From the sequence record PV295200.1: a stretch of DNA of 64,000 nt; one strand, written 5' to 3'. Of this stretch, positions 12,967 to 22,644 are shown piece after piece. Every line of letters begins with the position of its first letter. Position 1 is the stretch's first letter. The notes under the pieces are model-generated. The model ran no database searches, was not told the origin of the DNA, and saw only the letters and a list, made by a program, of their open reading frames with translations. The DNA comes from Escherichia phage vB_Eco_BCPEco_001. Both the position numbers and the translations under genes were made by a program.

Positions 12967-13190
12967 TGAGATATAACATTGATGATGCTTTTAATTATGA
13001 AGAAGAATTTGAAACGGAAATTCAATTCTTAATGAAAAAGCATAATCTTAAGCGTCAGGATATTTGTATCCTGGCCGACCACCCGTGTGGTGAAGATGTC
13101 CTTTATATTAAAGGAAAATTTGCCGGATATCTTGATGAATATTTTTATTCTAAAGATATGGGCATTGATATGCATATGAGAGTTGTATAA
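12966..13190 (+). CDS. hypothetical protein uvsY.-1-like (74 aa)
   Basis: ORF immediately downstream of uvsY, start overlaps uvsY stop. Confidence 0.6.
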   Translation: MRYNIDDAFNYEEEFETEIQFLMKKHNLKRQDICILADHPCGEDVLYIKGKFAGYLDEYFYSKDMGIDMHMRVV

Positions 13191-13218
13191 ATAGATATAT
13201 AATTCAGAGGAGACAATC

Positions 13219-13386
13219 ATGTCAGATAAGATTTGTGTTGTCTGTAAAACTCCAATCGATTCTGCATTGGTTGTTGAAACAGACAAAGGTCCTGTACATC
13301 CTGGGCCTTGCTATAATTACATTAAAGAACTACCAGTTTCAGAAAGTTCGGAAGAACAATTAAATGAAACACAACTTTTGCTATAG
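13219..13386 (+). CDS. hypothetical small Cys-containing protein uvsY.-2-like (55 aa)
   Basis: ATG at 13219 with GAGGAG Shine-Dalgarno; translation MSDKICVVCKTPIDS...PGPCYNY; not in ORF track (below length cutoff). Confidence 0.5.
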   Translation: MSDKICVVCKTPIDSALVVETDKGPVHPGPCYNYIKELPVSESSEEQLNETQLLL

Positions 13387-13441
13387 TGTGACCTTTAGTC
13401 TATAGTTTTGGCCCTTCCTTTTTGGTTGGGCCTTTTTTAAT

Positions 13442-13684
13442 TTAAAAGCTTTCTTCTACTTCATCATCTGAATCTTCTAATTCAGCTCTTTTTCCTGCCA
13501 AAGCATCTCTCACAGAGATGTCATCAGTATCTTTTAATTCAGTTTCTTTGACTCTTTTCTTATAATAAGCTTCAAGTTCTTCTAAACCTTCTAATGTTTG
13601 ACAAGAGGCAATTTTACCCATAAATTCATCAATAGAAGCTTCATAAAGAAATTGTTTAAATTCTAGTAACATCTTTTTCTCCAA
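13442..13684 (-). CDS. uvsW.1: UvsW.1 small acidic protein
   Basis: 80 aa ORF directly downstream of uvsW on same strand, as in T4. Confidence 0.7.
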   Translation of the reverse strand: MEKKMLLEFKQFLYEASIDEFMGKIASCQTLEGLEELEAYYKKRVKETELKDTDDISVRDALAGKRAELEDSDDEVEESF

Positions 13685-13697
13685 AGGGCCGAAGCCC

Positions 13698-15209
13698 TTA
13701 TAAATTAACTGTTTTCATTACGTAATTAAATTTTTCATCTGCGTAGCGCTGAATACGATCAATGCCGTGTTTTAAAAGATAGTTCAAATGAACATATTTC
13801 TTTTTTGTATTAGCAGATTTTGGCTTAACACCGCAATCATCTATGAGGTCCCAGACTGTTGCTATTGTCTTAGAACCATGCTTACGTAATACACGACCGA
13901 TTGTTTGCAATACAATGATTTTTGATTTAACACCGTGCGCTAAAACAACGTGATGCAGATTTTTAACTGAAATACCAGTAGAAAATACACCATAACTAGC
14001 TACTATAATTATTCCTTTACCATTTTCAGCTAAGGTTTTCATTATATTGCGGGTTTCGGTATCAACTTCCCCTGATACGTAATAAACTTTATCGTATTCA
14101 TTTTTAATTAAATCGAAAATAGCTTTACCGTGCGATACATGTTTAAACATGACAAAAGCGTTTTCATCTTTTTGCGCAAGCTTAATAGCTAATTTAGCGA
14201 TCCATTTATTTCTTTTACTAAGCCCAGTAATAATTTTTATTTCTTCTTGGTAAGTTTTTCCCTTTAATTTAGTAGTGAACTCATCGGGATAGCGAAGAAA
14301 AATACTATTAATTTTTAGCTCAGTTACTTGTCCATCTTCCATTAATTTAGAAGTCGTTACTGGCTTAAATATTTCACCAAACATTCCAACATACTGCATG
14401 ATATTGGCTTTGCCATCACGTAATGAACCTGATAGACCAAATTTAAACATACAGTTATTTAATCCTGATATGATAGATGAAATACTTTTTCCTGTAGCAA
14501 GATGGCATTCATCATTCATCATCATTCCAAACTGTGAGAACCATTCTTTTGGTTGTTTAACTACAGTTTGCCATGTACCAACGACGACTGGTGCATCATT
14601 TTTATATTTATCATCTTTTGATGCTCCGCCACCGATTTTCTTTATCATTGCATGACTGAATAAACGATAATCAACAAAGTCATCAGCCATCTGAGTTGTC
14701 AGAGCAGTTGTTGGAACAATGATAAGAATTTTACCTTCATAATTTTCCAAATAATATCGCGCAAGCAAAGCTTGAATTAAAGATTTACCCGCAGATGTTG
14801 GAAGATTAAGAATTCTACGACGATTAACTAATCCTTCGAACACTGCATCTTTTTGATACCAGTGTGGTTCAATTCTTTTATTTCCTGAATAGATTTCTAA
14901 TTTAGAAAGCCATTCATCAAAATCTTTTCTTGATAATTCTTCTTTTTCGTTAATTTGCGGGTCAATCCAGGCTTTATAGCCAAAATTATCACAGAACTTT
15001 TTAATTTGCCCGACTAAGCCGAATGGAAGAAGACGATTATAATCTAAAAGACGGATTCGTCCATCCCAGTTGCCATATCTGAAGCGAGGATTAAACCTAT
15101 ATCCATCAGCTTCAAAGCTAAAGAAATCACGGAGTTCATGAAATGTACTTTCTTCACAATCAATTCTCACGTGACTAAAATCATAAAAATGTACTTTAAT
15201 GTCAGTCAT
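13698..15209 (-). CDS. uvsW: UvsW DNA/RNA helicase
   Basis: 503 aa, SF2 helicase motifs (PTSAGKS Walker A, DECH box), late promoter TATAAATA upstream. Confidence 0.9.
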   Translation of the reverse strand: MTDIKVHFYDFSHVRIDCEESTFHELRDFFSFEADGYRFNPRFRYGNWDGRIRLLDYNRLLPFGLVGQIKKFCDNFGYKAWIDPQINEKEELSRKDFDEWLSKLEIYSGNKRIEPHWYQKDAVFEGLVNRRRILNLPTSAGKSLIQALLARYYLENYEGKILIIVPTTALTTQMADDFVDYRLFSHAMIKKIGGGASKDDKYKNDAPVVVGTWQTVVKQPKEWFSQFGMMMNDECHLATGKSISSIISGLNNCMFKFGLSGSLRDGKANIMQYVGMFGEIFKPVTTSKLMEDGQVTELKINSIFLRYPDEFTTKLKGKTYQEEIKIITGLSKRNKWIAKLAIKLAQKDENAFVMFKHVSHGKAIFDLIKNEYDKVYYVSGEVDTETRNIMKTLAENGKGIIIVASYGVFSTGISVKNLHHVVLAHGVKSKIIVLQTIGRVLRKHGSKTIATVWDLIDDCGVKPKSANTKKKYVHLNYLLKHGIDRIQRYADEKFNYVMKTVNL

Positions 15210-15238
15210 GTCTAAATACCATGTAATAAATATATCTA

Positions 15239-15246
15239 TATTTATA
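15239..15246 (-). promoter_or_regulatory. late promoter TATAAATA (uvsW)
   Basis: Exact box on minus strand 30 bp upstream of uvsW ATG. Confidence 0.7.
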
Positions 15247-15259
15247 CTGAGGAAATATT

Positions 15260-15940
15260 ATGATAGATAAAGATTATATTGCAGAGCTGAAGGCTCTTGA
15301 TGATAACAAAGAAGCTAAAGCTAAATTAGCTGAATATGCTGAACAGTTTGGTATAAAGGTCAAAAAGAATAAATCTTTTGATAATATCGTTGTTGATATT
15401 GAAGAAGCCCTCCAGAAGCTCGCTAGTGAACCTATGCCGGAGACTGATGGGTTATCTATTAAAGACTTAATTGATGCTGCTGATGCTGCAGAGGGGTTAA
15501 AATATGACGATGAAGAAGTCAATCCAGAAGCAGCACTTCTGATTGATTCTCCGGTTAAATCTGACATTAAAATTGAAGTAGTAAAAACGGATAAAATTCC
15601 TGAAAATACCTCAGTTTTGATTGAAGATACTCCTTTTGTTGAAGAAAAATTCGAACAGGCTGTAGCTGAGATTATTGAATCTGAAAAGCCGTCTGTATTT
15701 ACTCTTCCGGAAAACTTTAGCCCAAATCTTCAGCTGATTGGAAAAAATCCAGGATTCTGTACTGTTCCTTGGTGGATTTATCAATGGATTGCTGAAACTC
15801 CGGATTGGAAATCTCACCCAACTAGTTTTGAACATGCGTCAGCACACCAAACTTTATTTAGCTTAATTTATTACATTAACCGTGACGGATCAGTTTTAAT
15901 TCGTGAAACACGCAACTCTTCTTTCGTAACATTAAAATAA
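15260..15940 (+). CDS. inh: Inh, inhibitor of prohead protease gp21
   Basis: 226 aa, size and position next to hoc match T4 inh. Confidence 0.8.
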   Translation: MIDKDYIAELKALDDNKEAKAKLAEYAEQFGIKVKKNKSFDNIVVDIEEALQKLASEPMPETDGLSIKDLIDAADAAEGLKYDDEEVNPEAALLIDSPVKSDIKIEVVKTDKIPENTSVLIEDTPFVEEKFEQAVAEIIESEKPSVFTLPENFSPNLQLIGKNPGFCTVPWWIYQWIAETPDWKSHPTSFEHASAHQTLFSLIYYINRDGSVLIRETRNSSFVTLK

Positions 15941-15949
15941 GGATAACTT

Positions 15950-17370
15950 ATGACTTTTACAGTTGATATAACTCCTAAAACACCGACAGGGGGTTATTGA
16001 TGAAACTAAGCAGTTTACTGCTACACCCAGTGGTGAAACTGGAGGCGGAACTATTACATATGCTTGGACTGTAGATGATGCTCCACAAGATGGAGCTGAA
16101 GCAACTTTTGATTATGTATTAAAAGGACCTGCTGGACAAAAGACTATTAAAGTAGTTGCAACAAATACAGTTCCAGATACTGATGCTGAAACAGCAGAAG
16201 CTACTACAACTATCACAGTTCAAAATAAGACACAAACGACTACCTTAGCTGTAACTCCTAATAGTCCTCCGGAAGGAGTAATCGGAACAGCTGTTGAATT
16301 TACCGCTGCCTTAGATTCGCAGCCACCTGGCGCATCTGCTACGTATCAATGGCACGTTGACGGTTCTCCTGCGGGCGAAGCAACTTCTGCTACATTCAAT
16401 TACACTCCTACCACAAGCGGAGTTAAAACAATTAAGTGTGTGGCTCAAGTAACCGCAACAGATTATGATGCAAAAGAAGTTACTTCTAATGAAGTGTCAC
16501 TGACTGTTAATAAAAAGACACAGACAACTACCTTAGCCGTAACTCCTGATAGTCCTTCAGCTGGAGTAATTGGAACCCCCAGTTCAATTTACTGCTGCCT
16601 TAGCTTCTCAACCAGTTGGAGCGTCTGCTACGTATCAGTGGTATGTAGATGATTCACAAGTTGGTGGAGAAACTAACTCTACATTTAGCTATACTCCAAC
16701 TACAAGTGGAGTAAAAAGAATTAAATGCGTAGCCCAAGTAACTGCTGAAAATTACAATGAAAAGGAAGTTACTTCTAATGAAGTATCATTAACGGTTAAT
16801 AAGAAGACAATGAATCCACAGGTTACATTGACTCCTCCTTCTATTAACGTGCAGCAAGATGCTTTGGCTACATTTACCGCTAATGTCACTGATGCTCCAG
16901 AAGAAGCGCAAATTGCGTATTCATGGAAGAAAGATTCTTCTCCTGTAGAAGGGTCAACTAATGTATATACCGTTGATACCTCATCTATTGGAAGTCAAAC
17001 TATTGAAGTTACTGCAACTGTTACTGCTGCTGATTATGATAGCAAAACTATTACGGCAGAAGGTCAAGTTCAGGTAACTGATAAAGTTGCTCCGGAACCA
17101 GAAGGTGAATTACCTTATGTTCATCCTCTTCCACACCGTAGCTCAGCTTACATCTGGTGTGGTTGGTGGGTTATGGATGAAATCCAAAAAATGACTGAAG
17201 AAGGTAAAGATTGGAAAACTGAAGATCCAGATAGTAAATACTACCTGCATCGTTACACTCTTCAGAAGATGATGAAAGACTATCCAGAAGTTGATGTCCA
17301 AGAATCACGTAATGGATACATCATTCATAAAACTGCTTTAGAAACTGGTATCATCTATACCTATCCATAA
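15950..17370 (+). pseudogene. hoc: hoc (highly immunogenic outer capsid protein) with extra Ig-like domain, interrupted by two +1 frameshifts
   Basis: Start MTFTVDITPKTPTG, C-terminus ...YIWCGWWVMDEIQKMTEEGKDW...GIIYTYP match recalled T4 Hoc; reading frame shifts at G5 run 15989-15993 and C5 run 16576-16580. Confidence 0.8.
16228..16803 (+). repeat. tandem 288-bp imperfect duplication encoding two Ig-like domains within hoc (16228-16515 and 16516-16803)
   Basis: Both copies encode KTQTTTLAVTP...YTPTTSGVK.IKCVAQVTA..Y...EVTSNEVSLTVNKK. Confidence 0.85.
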
Positions 17371-18954: not shown

Positions 18955-18960
18955 ATAAAA

Positions 18961-18985
18961 AGGGACCGAAAGGTCCCTTTGTTTT
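18961..18985. terminator. bidirectional terminator between rnlB and gene 24
   Basis: AGGGACC-GAAA-GGTCCCT flanked by A-run and T-run. Confidence 0.65.
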
Positions 18986-20267
18986 ATTCATCAACGATAA
19001 TTTTTGGTAGCTTAACACCTAATAAAACAGACAAATCTGAACGACCCGCCATTTTATCCATGTCTCCACCATCAATTACTCTTGCTTCTTTTTCATCTTT
19101 TGCTACGGTGTAAGGATTTGCAGATAAAGCATATCTAACTAATAAACCGATAGATGGCTGCAAACTTTCTGGGTCAACTACAACTTTAAATGCACCTACA
19201 TGTTCAGGGTCATCTAAGTCAAGACCTTCTGTATACGGAGCATAGAAAATTGACCCAACAATTTCTTTTTCACCGATATTTTCTACTACGCCAACGATTA
19301 CATAATCTAATGGGCTGTTAGTATCGCAATAAAGCGGTAAACCATTAGCTAAGAACCCGTAGGCATTTTGTGAAAGATACTTATCATCTTCTGGTTTATG
19401 TTTTAACCAACCAGATGCAGCAAGAATCGCAGCGGCACGAGCTGAAGCAACACAGAACGTTGCCGTATAAGTTGATTCTTTTTGGATATGCGAAACCATT
19501 TCACATACCATTCGGTATAATGAACGACCAGCTTCAGGTGCAGATGCATAACTCAAATCAATGAATCCAGTATCAGTAATTCCTGTAACTTTATAACGTT
19601 TTGATACTGTAATCAAAGACTGCAGAATATCTTTATTGATTTCATCTGCCATTTCAGTTGCAAGCAAATCTTCCAAGAAATTAGGAGCATCGAATCCATT
19701 TGCTTCTAAATCTTGCGCTAATTCAACTGTGATACCAGTTTTAAGTTTACGAGATTTAACTGCGGTTTGCCATTTATTAATCTGGAATCTAGCATCCGCA
19801 ATTTCACTATCAGAGCTTTCAAATTTGCTTGTTGACGCTGCGTCAGAAAATAGACGAACCTTTAAAAGAACAATTGCAATCTGAAGAGCTAATTCTAAAT
19901 CGCTTTCTTCAATATCAGCAAATGGTGTATCTTCTAATACTTTATAAACGATATTATTATATTTGAATAAATCGCCCTTATTGAGAGTTAATTTAGACTC
20001 TTCTGTTAATTCTGTGATTTGTTCTCGGTCTACATATCCAGCTTCGCCAGCGTAAGTAGCACCAGTTTTAAATGTAAATTCGTTGTCTGGGTTAAGGTAT
20101 TTGATACCATAAAAAGCAGCAACAGGTTGATTAGTTCTTTGCGTTGCTACAATGTCAGAATATATTAATTTAGTGGTAGCGCGAGTCAAAGCAACGAGAT
20201 TTGGGCGACCGATTGAGTTGCTATTCGTTGTGGTTGATTCGCGCAGAAGTTCGTTGATTTTAGCCAT
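18984..20267 (-). CDS. 24: head vertex protein gp24
   Basis: 427 aa, gp23-like fold paralog, late promoter upstream, synteny next to 23. Confidence 0.9.
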   Translation of the reverse strand: MAKINELLRESTTTNSNSIGRPNLVALTRATTKLIYSDIVATQRTNQPVAAFYGIKYLNPDNEFTFKTGATYAGEAGYVDREQITELTEESKLTLNKGDLFKYNNIVYKVLEDTPFADIEESDLELALQIAIVLLKVRLFSDAASTSKFESSDSEIADARFQINKWQTAVKSRKLKTGITVELAQDLEANGFDAPNFLEDLLATEMADEINKDILQSLITVSKRYKVTGITDTGFIDLSYASAPEAGRSLYRMVCEMVSHIQKESTYTATFCVASARAAAILAASGWLKHKPEDDKYLSQNAYGFLANGLPLYCDTNSPLDYVIVGVVENIGEKEIVGSIFYAPYTEGLDLDDPEHVGAFKVVVDPESLQPSIGLLVRYALSANPYTVAKDEKEARVIDGGDMDKMAGRSDLSVLLGVKLPKIIVDE

Positions 20268-20294
20268 TGTATTTTCCTTGTTGAAATATAATAC

Positions 20295-20302
20295 TATTTA
20301 TA
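20295..20302 (-). promoter_or_regulatory. late promoter TATAAATA (gene 24)
   Basis: Exact box on minus strand 28 bp upstream of gp24 ATG. Confidence 0.75.
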
Positions 20303-20307
20303 AAGTT

Positions 20308-20338
20308 ATTTACAAGACCAAAGTAATATGATATTATA
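20308..20338 (+). promoter_or_regulatory. early-type promoter (segD)
   Basis: ATTTAC -35-like, 18-bp spacer, ATATTA -10-like, upstream of segD ATG 20367. Confidence 0.4.
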
Positions 20339-20366
20339 TTCATATACAAATGGAGTAGTGTTTAAA

Positions 20367-21029
20367 ATGAAATATTTAATATATCAAATTACTAATATCA
20401 TCAATGGAAAAATTTACATCGGAGCTCATGCTACTCTTGACGAAAACGATGGTTATATGGGTTCTGGCGTAAACATCAAAAAATCCATCAAAAAATATGG
20501 TATTCATAACTTTAAAAAAGAAATTCTTTATTCTTTCTCCTCATCTGAGGAGATGTATAAAATGGAAGCTTTACTAGTCAATGAGGAATTCGTTATGAGA
20601 ACTGATACTTATAATGCTGCTATTGGTGGTAGAGGAAATCCAGTTATAGTTCATTTGCAAGATCCTTCATATCGTAATATGTTATCAATGCGAACAAAAG
20701 AAGGAATGACTGCGGAAGCTAAACGAAAAATATCAAAGGCAAAAACAGGCGTTAAGCAATCTGATGAAACTATTACGAAGCGAGTTAAAGGGCGCAATGA
20801 ATATTATAAAACACATGTTCATCCACGAAAAAATAAACCTATATCGATTTCACATCGTAAAGCTATTTCTGAAAAACTTGGTGGTATTAAAAAATTTATT
20901 CCAATATGTATAAAGGGCGTTAAATTTGATAATCCTGATTACGCAGCGGAGCATTTTAAAGTTAGTCCTAAAACTATTCGCAATTGGATAAATGCGGATG
21001 ATATGCCTGATTGCTATCGTATAAAATAG
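20367..21029 (+). CDS. segD: GIY-YIG homing endonuclease, SegD-like
   Basis: N-terminal KYLIYQITNIINGKIYIGAH...DGYMGSG GIY-YIG motif; located between 23 and 24 on opposite strand as T4 segD; start taken at ATG 20367 with GGAG SD. Confidence 0.8.
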   Translation: MKYLIYQITNIINGKIYIGAHATLDENDGYMGSGVNIKKSIKKYGIHNFKKEILYSFSSSEEMYKMEALLVNEEFVMRTDTYNAAIGGRGNPVIVHLQDPSYRNMLSMRTKEGMTAEAKRKISKAKTGVKQSDETITKRVKGRNEYYKTHVHPRKNKPISISHRKAISEKLGGIKKFIPICIKGVKFDNPDYAAEHFKVSPKTIRNWINADDMPDCYRIK

Positions 21030-21034
21030 AAAAA

Positions 21035-21052
21035 GGGAACCCGAAGGTTCCC
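21035..21052. terminator. terminator after gene 23 (and segD)
   Basis: GGGAACC-CGAA-GGTTCCC; T-run follows on the minus strand. Confidence 0.65.
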
Positions 21053-21078
21053 TAAAATTGTGTTTCTATCGTTAGAGA

Positions 21079-22644
21079 TTAGATACCTTTAACATATACA
21101 CGTCTAAAGTAAGCGTTTTTACCAAGGCTATTCAGAATAGAAGGCATACCGCTCTGGATGCGAGAAGCCGGAGCCTGAGCAGCGGATTCTGCAAATGGGT
21201 TGATACCGATACCGTAACGAGTTTTGAATCCCATTACCGGTTGGAAGTTCTTCGGATCGGAACCACGCAGCGGAGTCAGAGCTACATATGGAGCATAGTA
21301 AATACCAGCATCCATTTCGTTCGGACCTTTATAACCTACAGTGAAATAATCCTGTTTAGCATACTGGTCGATATATACACGGTATTTACCACCCAGAACA
21401 CCAGCAAATACTGACTTGGTAGTATCAGTGTTGAAGCCAGTAGCCAGACCCTGTGCAGCATAAGAAATGCCGGTATCAACTGAAGCCAGAACGTTAACTA
21501 CGTTACGGGAAGCGATAATGAAGTTACCTTCACCACGACCAGTCTGACGAGCAATTTCAACTGCTTCTTTGTCAATCTGGAACAACAGAGCTTTAAAGGA
21601 TTCACCTGCCCAGCGAGCACCACGAATATCGATTGGGTCTTGGAAGTCAAATACACCAGCTTTAGAACCCGGAGTCAGGGTCATACCAGATTTACCAACC
21701 TGAGCTGAGTAGTTAATCCAATCAACAACTTCACGGTTGATTTCCAGCATAATTTCTGTAGCCAGAATACCAGACAGTTCAGCATCAGCATCCATACCGT
21801 GAACAGCGCGGAGGTCTTGTGCTAATTCGATAGAGTAAGCAGCTTTCAGCTGACGAGATTTAGCTTCGATAACTTGTTTATCGATACGGAAGCCCATTTC
21901 ATTCCATGGGTTATCGGTAGAACCGTTGAAACCTTCCTGAAGTTCAGCGATAGAAGTAGCCATACCTTCAGCGATTTCTACCAGTACACCAGCTTCCATT
22001 TGTTTCTTAACTTCGGCATCTAATTTAGCAGCATCAGTCGCACCAGCATCGATTGTTACTACAGCGGAAGCTTGCAGATACACGGTACCAGTTTCCTGGA
22101 AGAAGTGAGTATAGATATCACCTACAACGGTTTGTGTGCTAGCAGCCAGAGCTGGGAATTTCTTAGCAGCACCCTGACCAGAGAACATTGCATCTGGACC
22201 ATACATCGGATGGAATGCTTCTTTAGCACCGGAAGCGATTGGATCTTTACCATATACTGCGCGCAGTGCGAATACCTGGCCAGTCGGGCTGTTCATCGGC
22301 TGAACACCACAAATATCGAAAGCAATCAGGTTAGGAATAGCACGACGTACCATACCCATAACAGCTGGGCCAATCTGAGTCACTGCGCCAGAAGTCTGAC
22401 CAGCAGCGATGTTAGTAGCATTGTAACCGTGGTCACCACCGATTTCAGCTTCTGTTAAGAAAGAACCGAATGCCTGAGCAATTTTTTCGTCTTTATATTC
22501 CGGAGCTGTCTGGAAATCTTTTTCCTGGTTTTCAAAGATTTTAGCGATAATCGCTTGTTTGCTATTAGCAATTTCCGGTAAACCTTCACCTTCCAGTAAT
22601 GGCTTCCATTTGTTCAAAAGTTCAGCTTTAGTTTTGATAGTCAT
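21079..22644 (-). CDS. 23: major capsid protein gp23
   Basis: 521 aa, N-terminus MTIKTKAELLNKWKPLLEGEG matches T4 gp23; high-expression codon usage; strong terminator downstream. Confidence 0.95.
   Translation of the reverse strand: MTIKTKAELLNKWKPLLEGEGLPEIANSKQAIIAKIFENQEKDFQTAPEYKDEKIAQAFGSFLTEAEIGGDHGYNATNIAAGQTSGAVTQIGPAVMGMVRRAIPNLIAFDICGVQPMNSPTGQVFALRAVYGKDPIASGAKEAFHPMYGPDAMFSGQGAAKKFPALAASTQTVVGDIYTHFFQETGTVYLQASAVVTIDAGATDAAKLDAEVKKQMEAGVLVEIAEGMATSIAELQEGFNGSTDNPWNEMGFRIDKQVIEAKSRQLKAAYSIELAQDLRAVHGMDADAELSGILATEIMLEINREVVDWINYSAQVGKSGMTLTPGSKAGVFDFQDPIDIRGARWAGESFKALLFQIDKEAVEIARQTGRGEGNFIIASRNVVNVLASVDTGISYAAQGLATGFNTDTTKSVFAGVLGGKYRVYIDQYAKQDYFTVGYKGPNEMDAGIYYAPYVALTPLRGSDPKNFQPVMGFKTRYGIGINPFAESAAQAPASRIQSGMPSILNSLGKNAYFRRVYVKGI

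Follow-up and report, generated by a model that had tools for sequence, protein, structure and literature searches.

An antisense GIY-YIG endonuclease gene between capsid genes 23 and 24 of a T4-like phage and its putative early-type promoter

How can a small gene be expressed when it lies on the opposite strand between two capsid genes, and what kind of protein does it encode? The question is raised by a 220-aa open reading frame (ORF) in Escherichia phage vB_Eco_BCPEco_001 (PV295200.1), of which a stretch of 64,000 nucleotides, hereafter the window, was analysed. The initial annotation of this locus proposed a GIY-YIG endonuclease arranged like segD of phage T4, read against the late head genes from an early-type promoter and sharing a bidirectional terminator with gene 23. 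The account that we consider very probable as a whole is that segD is a free-standing GIY-YIG endonuclease gene, present as an antisense insertion of about 0.73 kb, which has its own early-type promoter and encodes an I-TevI-like protein. As such it is an already known gene and ordinary apart from its early promoter, which is clearly conserved.

The segD gene has been on the T4 map since the early 1990s. The window is of Tequatrovirus type, and its segD region (901 bp) is 100% identical to that of Shigella phage SHFML-11 and of two other isolates. The same 901 bp around the ORF share 98.8% DNA identity with T4, T6, RB18 and PST, in which the gene is annotated as segD. The ORF list and the neighbouring genes confirmed the reading frame starting at position 20367 of the + strand, directed against genes 23 and 24 (Table 1), and the stop codons of segD and gene 23 converge across a gap of 49 bp. 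In a full-length alignment, 220 of 223 amino acids are identical between the encoded protein and T4 SegD (NP_049788 / UniProt P19895), whose gene occupies the same 23/24 site in the same antisense orientation, with an identical promoter core and an identical late promoter box. Hence, by identity, position and antisense orientation between genes 23 and 24, the ORF is the orthologue of T4 segD, in line with the initial annotation. The two proteins differ by M108I, A116V and T135A (relative to T4), while in the DNA a GTG replaces the annotated ATG start of T4 and the -10 box is followed by a different base. These differences are unlikely to matter.

Table 1. Features of the segD locus and of related genes in the window (positions are those of the window unless residues are given)
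Feature	Position	Strand	Basis and remarks
Bidirectional intrinsic terminator between rnlB (+) and gene 24 (-)	18959..18980	both	scan; symmetric hairpin, T-runs on both sides
Gene 24, capsid vertex protein, left neighbour	18984..20267	-	near-identity to annotated T4-type genomes
23-24 intergenic allele carrying segD	20268..21078	.	about 728 bp longer than the 83-bp segD-less spacer
Gene 24 late promoter box TATAAATA	20302-20295	-	pattern search; 27 nt before the ATG of gene 24
segD promoter, sigma-70 / T4-early type (putative)	20309..20337	+	scan and conservation; predicted transcript start near 20344
Shine-Dalgarno GGAG	20352..20355	+	sequence; 11 nt before ATG 20367, 2 nt before GTG 20358
segD coding sequence	20367..21029	+	220 aa plus stop, ATG start; ORF list, T4 SegD identity, domain evidence
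SegD N-terminal GIY-YIG catalytic domain	about residues 1-90	+	homology and fold
SegD helical linker with NUMOD3-like stretch	between the two domains	+	homology and fold
SegD C-terminal I-TevI-type DNA-binding domain with helix-turn-helix	about residues 137-219	+	profile, Foldseek
Gene 23 intrinsic terminator hairpin	21034..21053	-	scan, on - only; 8-bp stem with UUCG loop, followed by TTTTT
Gene 23, major capsid protein, right neighbour, convergent with segD	21079..22644	-	near-identity to annotated T4-type genomes
Second Seg-type GIY-YIG ORF, 198 aa	47571-48167	-	same D-D-G-Y-M-G-S-G loop
Third Seg-type ORF, 221 aa	56683-57348	+	100% identical to SHFML-11; "group I intron endonuclease" in some phages

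The distribution of the gene is sporadic. Among about 500 phage records with flanks at least 95% identical to those of the window, about 52 carry segD, with the ORF intact and 97-100% conserved. In T2, RB10, fPS-2 and other relatives lacking segD, the spacer between genes 23 and 24 measures 83 bp and contains only the late box and a hairpin, and the flanks of such records span 873 bp where the query has 1601 bp. Against T2, the alignment is perfect as far as the capsid-gene ends on either side but is lost over the entire spacer, suggesting that the cassette carries a late promoter region and a hairpin of its own.

Gene 23 itself showed a separate pattern. Despite the 100% identity across the segD region, gp23 of the window is only 96.9% identical to gp23 of SHFML-11, and its C-terminal 239 residues are 100% identical to those of T2. 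Such a pattern points to gene 23, the neighbour of the endonuclease gene, being internally mosaic through recombination.

The proposed GIY-YIG similarity is not obvious from routine searches. The Pfam GIY-YIG models remained under their gathering cut-offs for SegD (PF19835, SegE_GIY-YIG, 23.3 against 25; PF01541, 19.3 against 22.6), and a single-sequence search of the PDB sequences gave only an insignificant match (E 0.39). Because these searches were insufficient, the domain assignment relied on a profile of seven sequences, hhalign and a structure model. SegD matches phrog_314 "homing endonuclease" with an E of 1e-55 and, at residues 5-212, the NCBIfam family TIGR01453 "group I intron endonuclease" just above its cut-off (56.2 bits against 56.05). 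The 7-sequence profile retrieved the DNA-binding domain of I-TevI (1I3J, E 2.3e-8, residues 137-219) and also matched the first 21 residues of the I-TevI catalytic domain, while hhalign aligned SegD with full-length I-TevI over 202 columns (97.5% probability, E 8e-12). A further hint of Pfam HTH_17 was found at residues 191-214.

An AlphaFold2 model of SegD was built on 39 homologues. Its pLDDT is 86 overall and above 90 over residues 1-70, with strands at residues 2-10 and 16-23. The only confident PDB matches of this model in Foldseek were 1MK0, 1LN0 and 1I3J, that is the I-TevI catalytic domain (1MK0/1LN0, probability 1.00, TM 0.64 on the target) and the I-TevI DNA-binding domain (probability 1.00). 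Together with the phrog_314, TIGR01453 and hhalign matches, the fold search thus upholds the GIY-YIG assignment. SegD shares the two-domain plan of I-TevI, the GIY-YIG homing endonuclease of the T4 td intron, over its full length. In such a protein, the C-terminal helix-turn-helix domain would bind a long DNA site, and a flexible linker would join it to the N-terminal GIY-YIG domain, which would cut both strands nearby.

The GIY and YIG motifs are represented in SegD by I5-Y6-Q7 and Y17-I18-G19, 10-11 residues apart on the two N-terminal strands. Across the 39 homologues, which reach down to 33% identity, 19 positions are invariant. These include Y6 and Y17, which align to Y6 and Y17 of I-TevI, as well as G19, N83, which aligns to I-TevI N90, and E67. 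In the last case, hhalign pairs the metal-binding E75 of I-TevI with E73 of SegD, which is not invariant, and the register of this helix is uncertain.

SegD also departs from I-TevI in several respects. It is free-standing rather than intron-encoded, is only about 25% identical, and has no zinc-finger segment, that part of I-TevI being unmatched in the hhalign alignment. Moreover, the segD promoter is of early type, whereas that of I-TevI is late. The catalytic arginine of I-TevI (R27) has no counterpart in SegD, where an 8-residue gap of the hhalign alignment stands opposite I-TevI K26-K33, and no arginine is invariant among the 39 homologues. In place of the I-TevI Arg27/His31 helix, SegD has an invariant loop, D28-x-Y30-M-G-S-G34, within the motif H-x-T...D-x-Y-M-G-S-G (SegD residues 20-34; window 20367-20470). 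Since both other Seg-like ORFs of the window carry the same loop, the missing helix looks like a trait of the Seg subfamily and not like an inactivation.

Where translation of segD begins was less evident. In the alignment with T4, the annotated T4 segD start lies 9 nt upstream of 20367 and reads GTG in the window. The gap between GGAG and the ATG at 20367 is long (11 nt). Nevertheless, the homologues at 40-59% identity all begin at the methionine corresponding to 20367 and several of them have a GGAG 5 nt upstream of it, so the ATG at 20367 is most likely the start codon, as the initial annotation had it. The T4-style start at 20358 was rejected for the phage of the window, being a GTG only 2 nt from the ribosome site. 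Also rejected was a 233-aa reading from the ATG at 20328, used by some database entries, because this ATG lies inside the promoter spacer and the homologues start at 20367. The comparison further argues that the T4 reference start of segD was placed 9 nt too far upstream, which would explain the 2-nt ribosome-site spacing noted as odd by Edgell 2010.

The early-type promoter had been proposed to lie back-to-back with the late promoter of gene 24, and both boxes were located, 6 nt apart. With 25 copies where 9.5 are expected, the late box TATAAATA is over-represented in the window. It occurs at the same place in segD-less phages, and in phage fPS-2 it is an annotated late promoter. The segD promoter was recognised by a scan as a 10/12 match plus TGn. 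It is composed of a -35 box, TTTACA (20309-20314), a 17-nt spacer, a TGn element (20329-20331, with the TG at -15/-14) and a -10 box, TATTAT (20332-20337). These features correspond to the -35/TGn/-10 core with 17-nt spacing of the T4 early class, whose promoters have a UP/-35/TGn/-10 architecture (Hinton 2010, PMC2988021).

Promoter-like matches are common in the window, which is AT-rich (36% G+C). Matches of at least 10/12 are not enriched (47 against 43 expected from simulations), and requiring TGn and a 17-nt spacer leaves 3 of them on both strands (128 kb), where 0.9 are expected, so a match in the sequence is by itself weak evidence. The segD promoter is convincing because its elements are conserved across lineages around a randomised spacer. 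Antisense SegD loci of seven diverged lineages were compared, namely T4, Mosigvirus AV109, Yersinia phage MHG19 and four IMG/VR contigs, one of them IME08-like. All seven contain, in this order, the reverse-complemented late box, 3-7 nt, an invariant TTTACA, exactly 17 nt, and TA[T/C]TAT or TATAAT. The TGn is present in all lineages except MHG19, in which the TG directly abuts the -10 box. The mean pairwise identity among the seven is 90% in the -35/TGn/-10 elements versus 27% in the 14 spacer positions. It is therefore credible, on this pattern of conservation, that segD has its own early-type promoter.

This putative promoter contradicts the review of Edgell et al. 2010, according to which bioinformatic searches found no segD-specific promoter and transcript levels were guessed to be "vanishingly low". 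In that review, it was suggested that segD has no promoter of its own and depends on read-through from the middle promoters upstream of rnlB/24.3 or from the late inh promoter, running antisense over gene 24. PrnlB and P24.3 are indeed mapped middle promoters on the same strand as segD and the nearest ones to it in the list of mapped T4 middle promoters, from which the segD promoter site is absent. In addition, rnlB, 24.2 and 24.3 share with segD the class "early RNA / middle protein" (PMC9697503). However, 1.3 kb of antisense gene 24 and the bidirectional terminator between rnlB and gene 24 intervene, and this terminator should block read-through from the upstream middle promoters toward segD, which makes such a route less likely. 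The -35/TGn/-10 elements directly upstream of segD, kept in seven lineages, speak against it as well, and so do the Mosigvirus and IME08-like loci, where the same promoter stands before a two-gene unit, which fits a local start. No MotA box was seen by eye in 20300-20340. Expression by read-through only is thus a quite unlikely explanation.

With a local promoter, segD would be transcribed by the host RNA polymerase (sigma-70) from a promoter of the T4-early kind, starting near 20344, and the same 45 bp would serve two directions in turn, rightwards for segD early and leftwards for gene 24 late in infection. The footprint of conservation would resolve the puzzle of the 2010 review by giving segD a credible early promoter, in agreement with omics data of 2022.

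The expression of segD in T4 is documented in those data (Wolfram-Schauerte et al. 2022, PMC9697503; Tables S2 and S3). The T4 segD RNA was assigned there to the "early" class, a broad one of 215 genes, from reads counted with featureCounts defaults and thus probably unstranded though the library was directional, while the protein was assigned to the "middle" class. With the column order of the tables inferred from the stated sampling times, the LFQ values of SegD are zero before infection, positive in the first post-infection samples (1-3 min) and reach a plateau of about 1-2e8 by about 12-20 min. By comparison, gp24 rises about 100-fold late, to about 3e9. Both the RNA class and the appearance of the protein from 1-3 min are consistent with calling the promoter early-type, which is supported by its elements conserved across lineages.

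The protein data unambiguously indicate that T4 segD is translated. They also bear on the view that the ORF is what is left of a homing endonuclease gene in decay, silent and essentially neither expressed nor active. The sub-threshold Pfam scores, the low transcript levels guessed in 2010 and the failure of SegD to promote homing, as relayed in PMC9523250, could be read in this sense. The detection of SegD by mass spectrometry throughout T4 infection (PMC9697503) largely refutes it. The intact and 97-100% conserved ORF of about 52 phages, the 19 positions invariant across 39 homologues, including the GIY/YIG tyrosines, E67 and N83, and the confident GIY-YIG fold of the predicted model likewise speak against it, and we regard this view as extremely improbable.

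At its 3′ end, segD was proposed to share a bidirectional terminator with gene 23. A hairpin shared by the two genes does exist, beginning 5 nt after the segD stop codon and taking up most of the 49-bp gap, and it folds on both strands (-17.0 kcal/mol on -, -14.9 kcal/mol on +; z about -3.5 to -3.8). Its bidirectional character was not sustained. The hairpin is a canonical terminator only in the direction of gene 23, on the - strand; the + strand tail, TAAAATTG, has no T-run and the scan makes no terminator call there. MHG19 and AV109, like every relative inspected, have the T-run on this one side as well, and a homologous hairpin follows gene 23 in the segD-less T2 and fPS-2. Since the T-run lies on gene 23's side only and the hairpin is also present in segD-less phages, it appears to be the terminator of gene 23, met by segD from behind. 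In this neighbourhood, the genuinely bidirectional terminator is the one between rnlB and gene 24.

For segD, the consequence would be that transcription enters the gene 23 hairpin on its "wrong" side, where no U-run follows, and termination is therefore probably leaky. The hairpin may mainly stabilise the 3′ end of the segD RNA. Late in infection, heavy transcription of gene 23 into the same hairpin would oppose segD expression, a plausible form of shut-off.

A transcript that is not efficiently ended would extend into gene 23. This leads to another reading, in which the early promoter serves mainly to make antisense RNA into gene 23, or to collide with late transcription from gene 23 to gene 24, thereby tuning capsid expression, with the endonuclease as a passenger. 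That the hairpin, read from segD, is followed by no U-run in any of the lineages examined would suit such a role, as would the promoter elements being more conserved than the protein. A regulator of capsid expression, however, is hard to reconcile with the fact that some 90% of the close relatives lack the cassette, and the co-oriented SegD relatives of Slopekvirus and Pseudotevenvirus have no such promoter and a late box instead. This reading is very unlikely.

The relatives of SegD extend this picture beyond the genus. All full-length relatives whose position could be determined occupy the 23/24 spacer, some antisense and some co-oriented with the capsid genes. The antisense ones belong to Tequatrovirus, Mosigvirus, IME08-like and MHG19-like phages. 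Slopekvirus KP15 and the Pseudotevenvirus phages IME-CF2 and JC03 have genes of the same family (40-42% identity, full length) at the same site, which, unlike the antisense segD of the window, run in the same direction as the capsid genes. Directly in front of them, downstream of the gene 23 terminator, is a late TATAAATA box, so they are presumably expressed late. The same 23/24 site was also described for an endonuclease in a Klebsiella phage (PMC8778798). One endonuclease lineage would thus have used the 23/24 spacer, in either orientation, as its constant site of insertion, which is relevant to the endonuclease-shaped mosaicism of capsid genes in therapy phages.

The cassette is not always limited to one gene. 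In Mosigvirus AV109 and in two IMG/VR contigs, an ORF of 88 aa (phrog_6003, E 1e-48) lies between the early promoter and the segD-like gene. The AV109-type cassette is, as judged from this order, a two-gene unit behind the conserved early promoter.

Its sporadic presence at one fixed site among close relatives gives segD the signature of a mobile element. SegD of T4 was reportedly characterised biochemically in 2018. The enzyme is said to cut a specific 16-bp site, leaving 3′ overhangs, and this site is reportedly identical in segD+ and segD- phages.

As far as the wording of PMC9523250 goes, which paraphrases Sokolov et al. 2018 (Virology 515:215; title cited in PMC10448857), T4 SegD failed to promote homing. 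Hence segD looks like a homing endonuclease gene, homing itself being unproven. A bolder proposal starts from a SegD family that may be locked to the 23/24 spacer in at least six groups of T4-like phages, which it would have entered in either direction. Its antisense members retain a strongly conserved early promoter even though SegD of T4 failed to home, and this would suit an enzyme of the first minutes of infection that was domesticated or put to new use, rather than a simple selfish homing element. If this were true, SegD might cut the DNA of a co-infecting competitor or of the host, or set an antisense control of the capsid genes. At present, this proposal is speculative and we consider it unlikely.

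SegB and SegC of T4 belong to the same GIY-YIG subfamily as SegD, with the motif H-x-T-x(3-4)-D-D-G-Y-M-G-S-G and a similarly sporadic distribution. Their genes are co-oriented with their neighbours and have middle or late promoters (Edgell 2010), whereas segD is antisense with an early-type promoter. They are also proven homing enzymes (homing or marker exclusion), in contrast to SegD, which did not home according to the paraphrase cited above.

A search of the window with a profile of the SegD family yielded three Seg-like ORFs in all, segD included. Edgell 2010 places T4 segE between inh and uvsW, and the profile found no Seg-like ORF in the stretch from hoc to uvsW (about 13000-16500 of the window), so that the phage may lack segE or carry a segE too distant for this profile. 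The second of the three, of 198 aa, is 99.8-100% identical to a gene located beside the gene 5 PAAR and phospholipase genes (SHFML-11 and a T4 isolate, 99.8% in DNA), a site at which segC is placed by Edgell 2010. By identity and location it is presumably segC, and only 37 phage records have this gene. The third, of 221 aa, is covered for most of its length by 130 records, many of them at only 80-90% identity.
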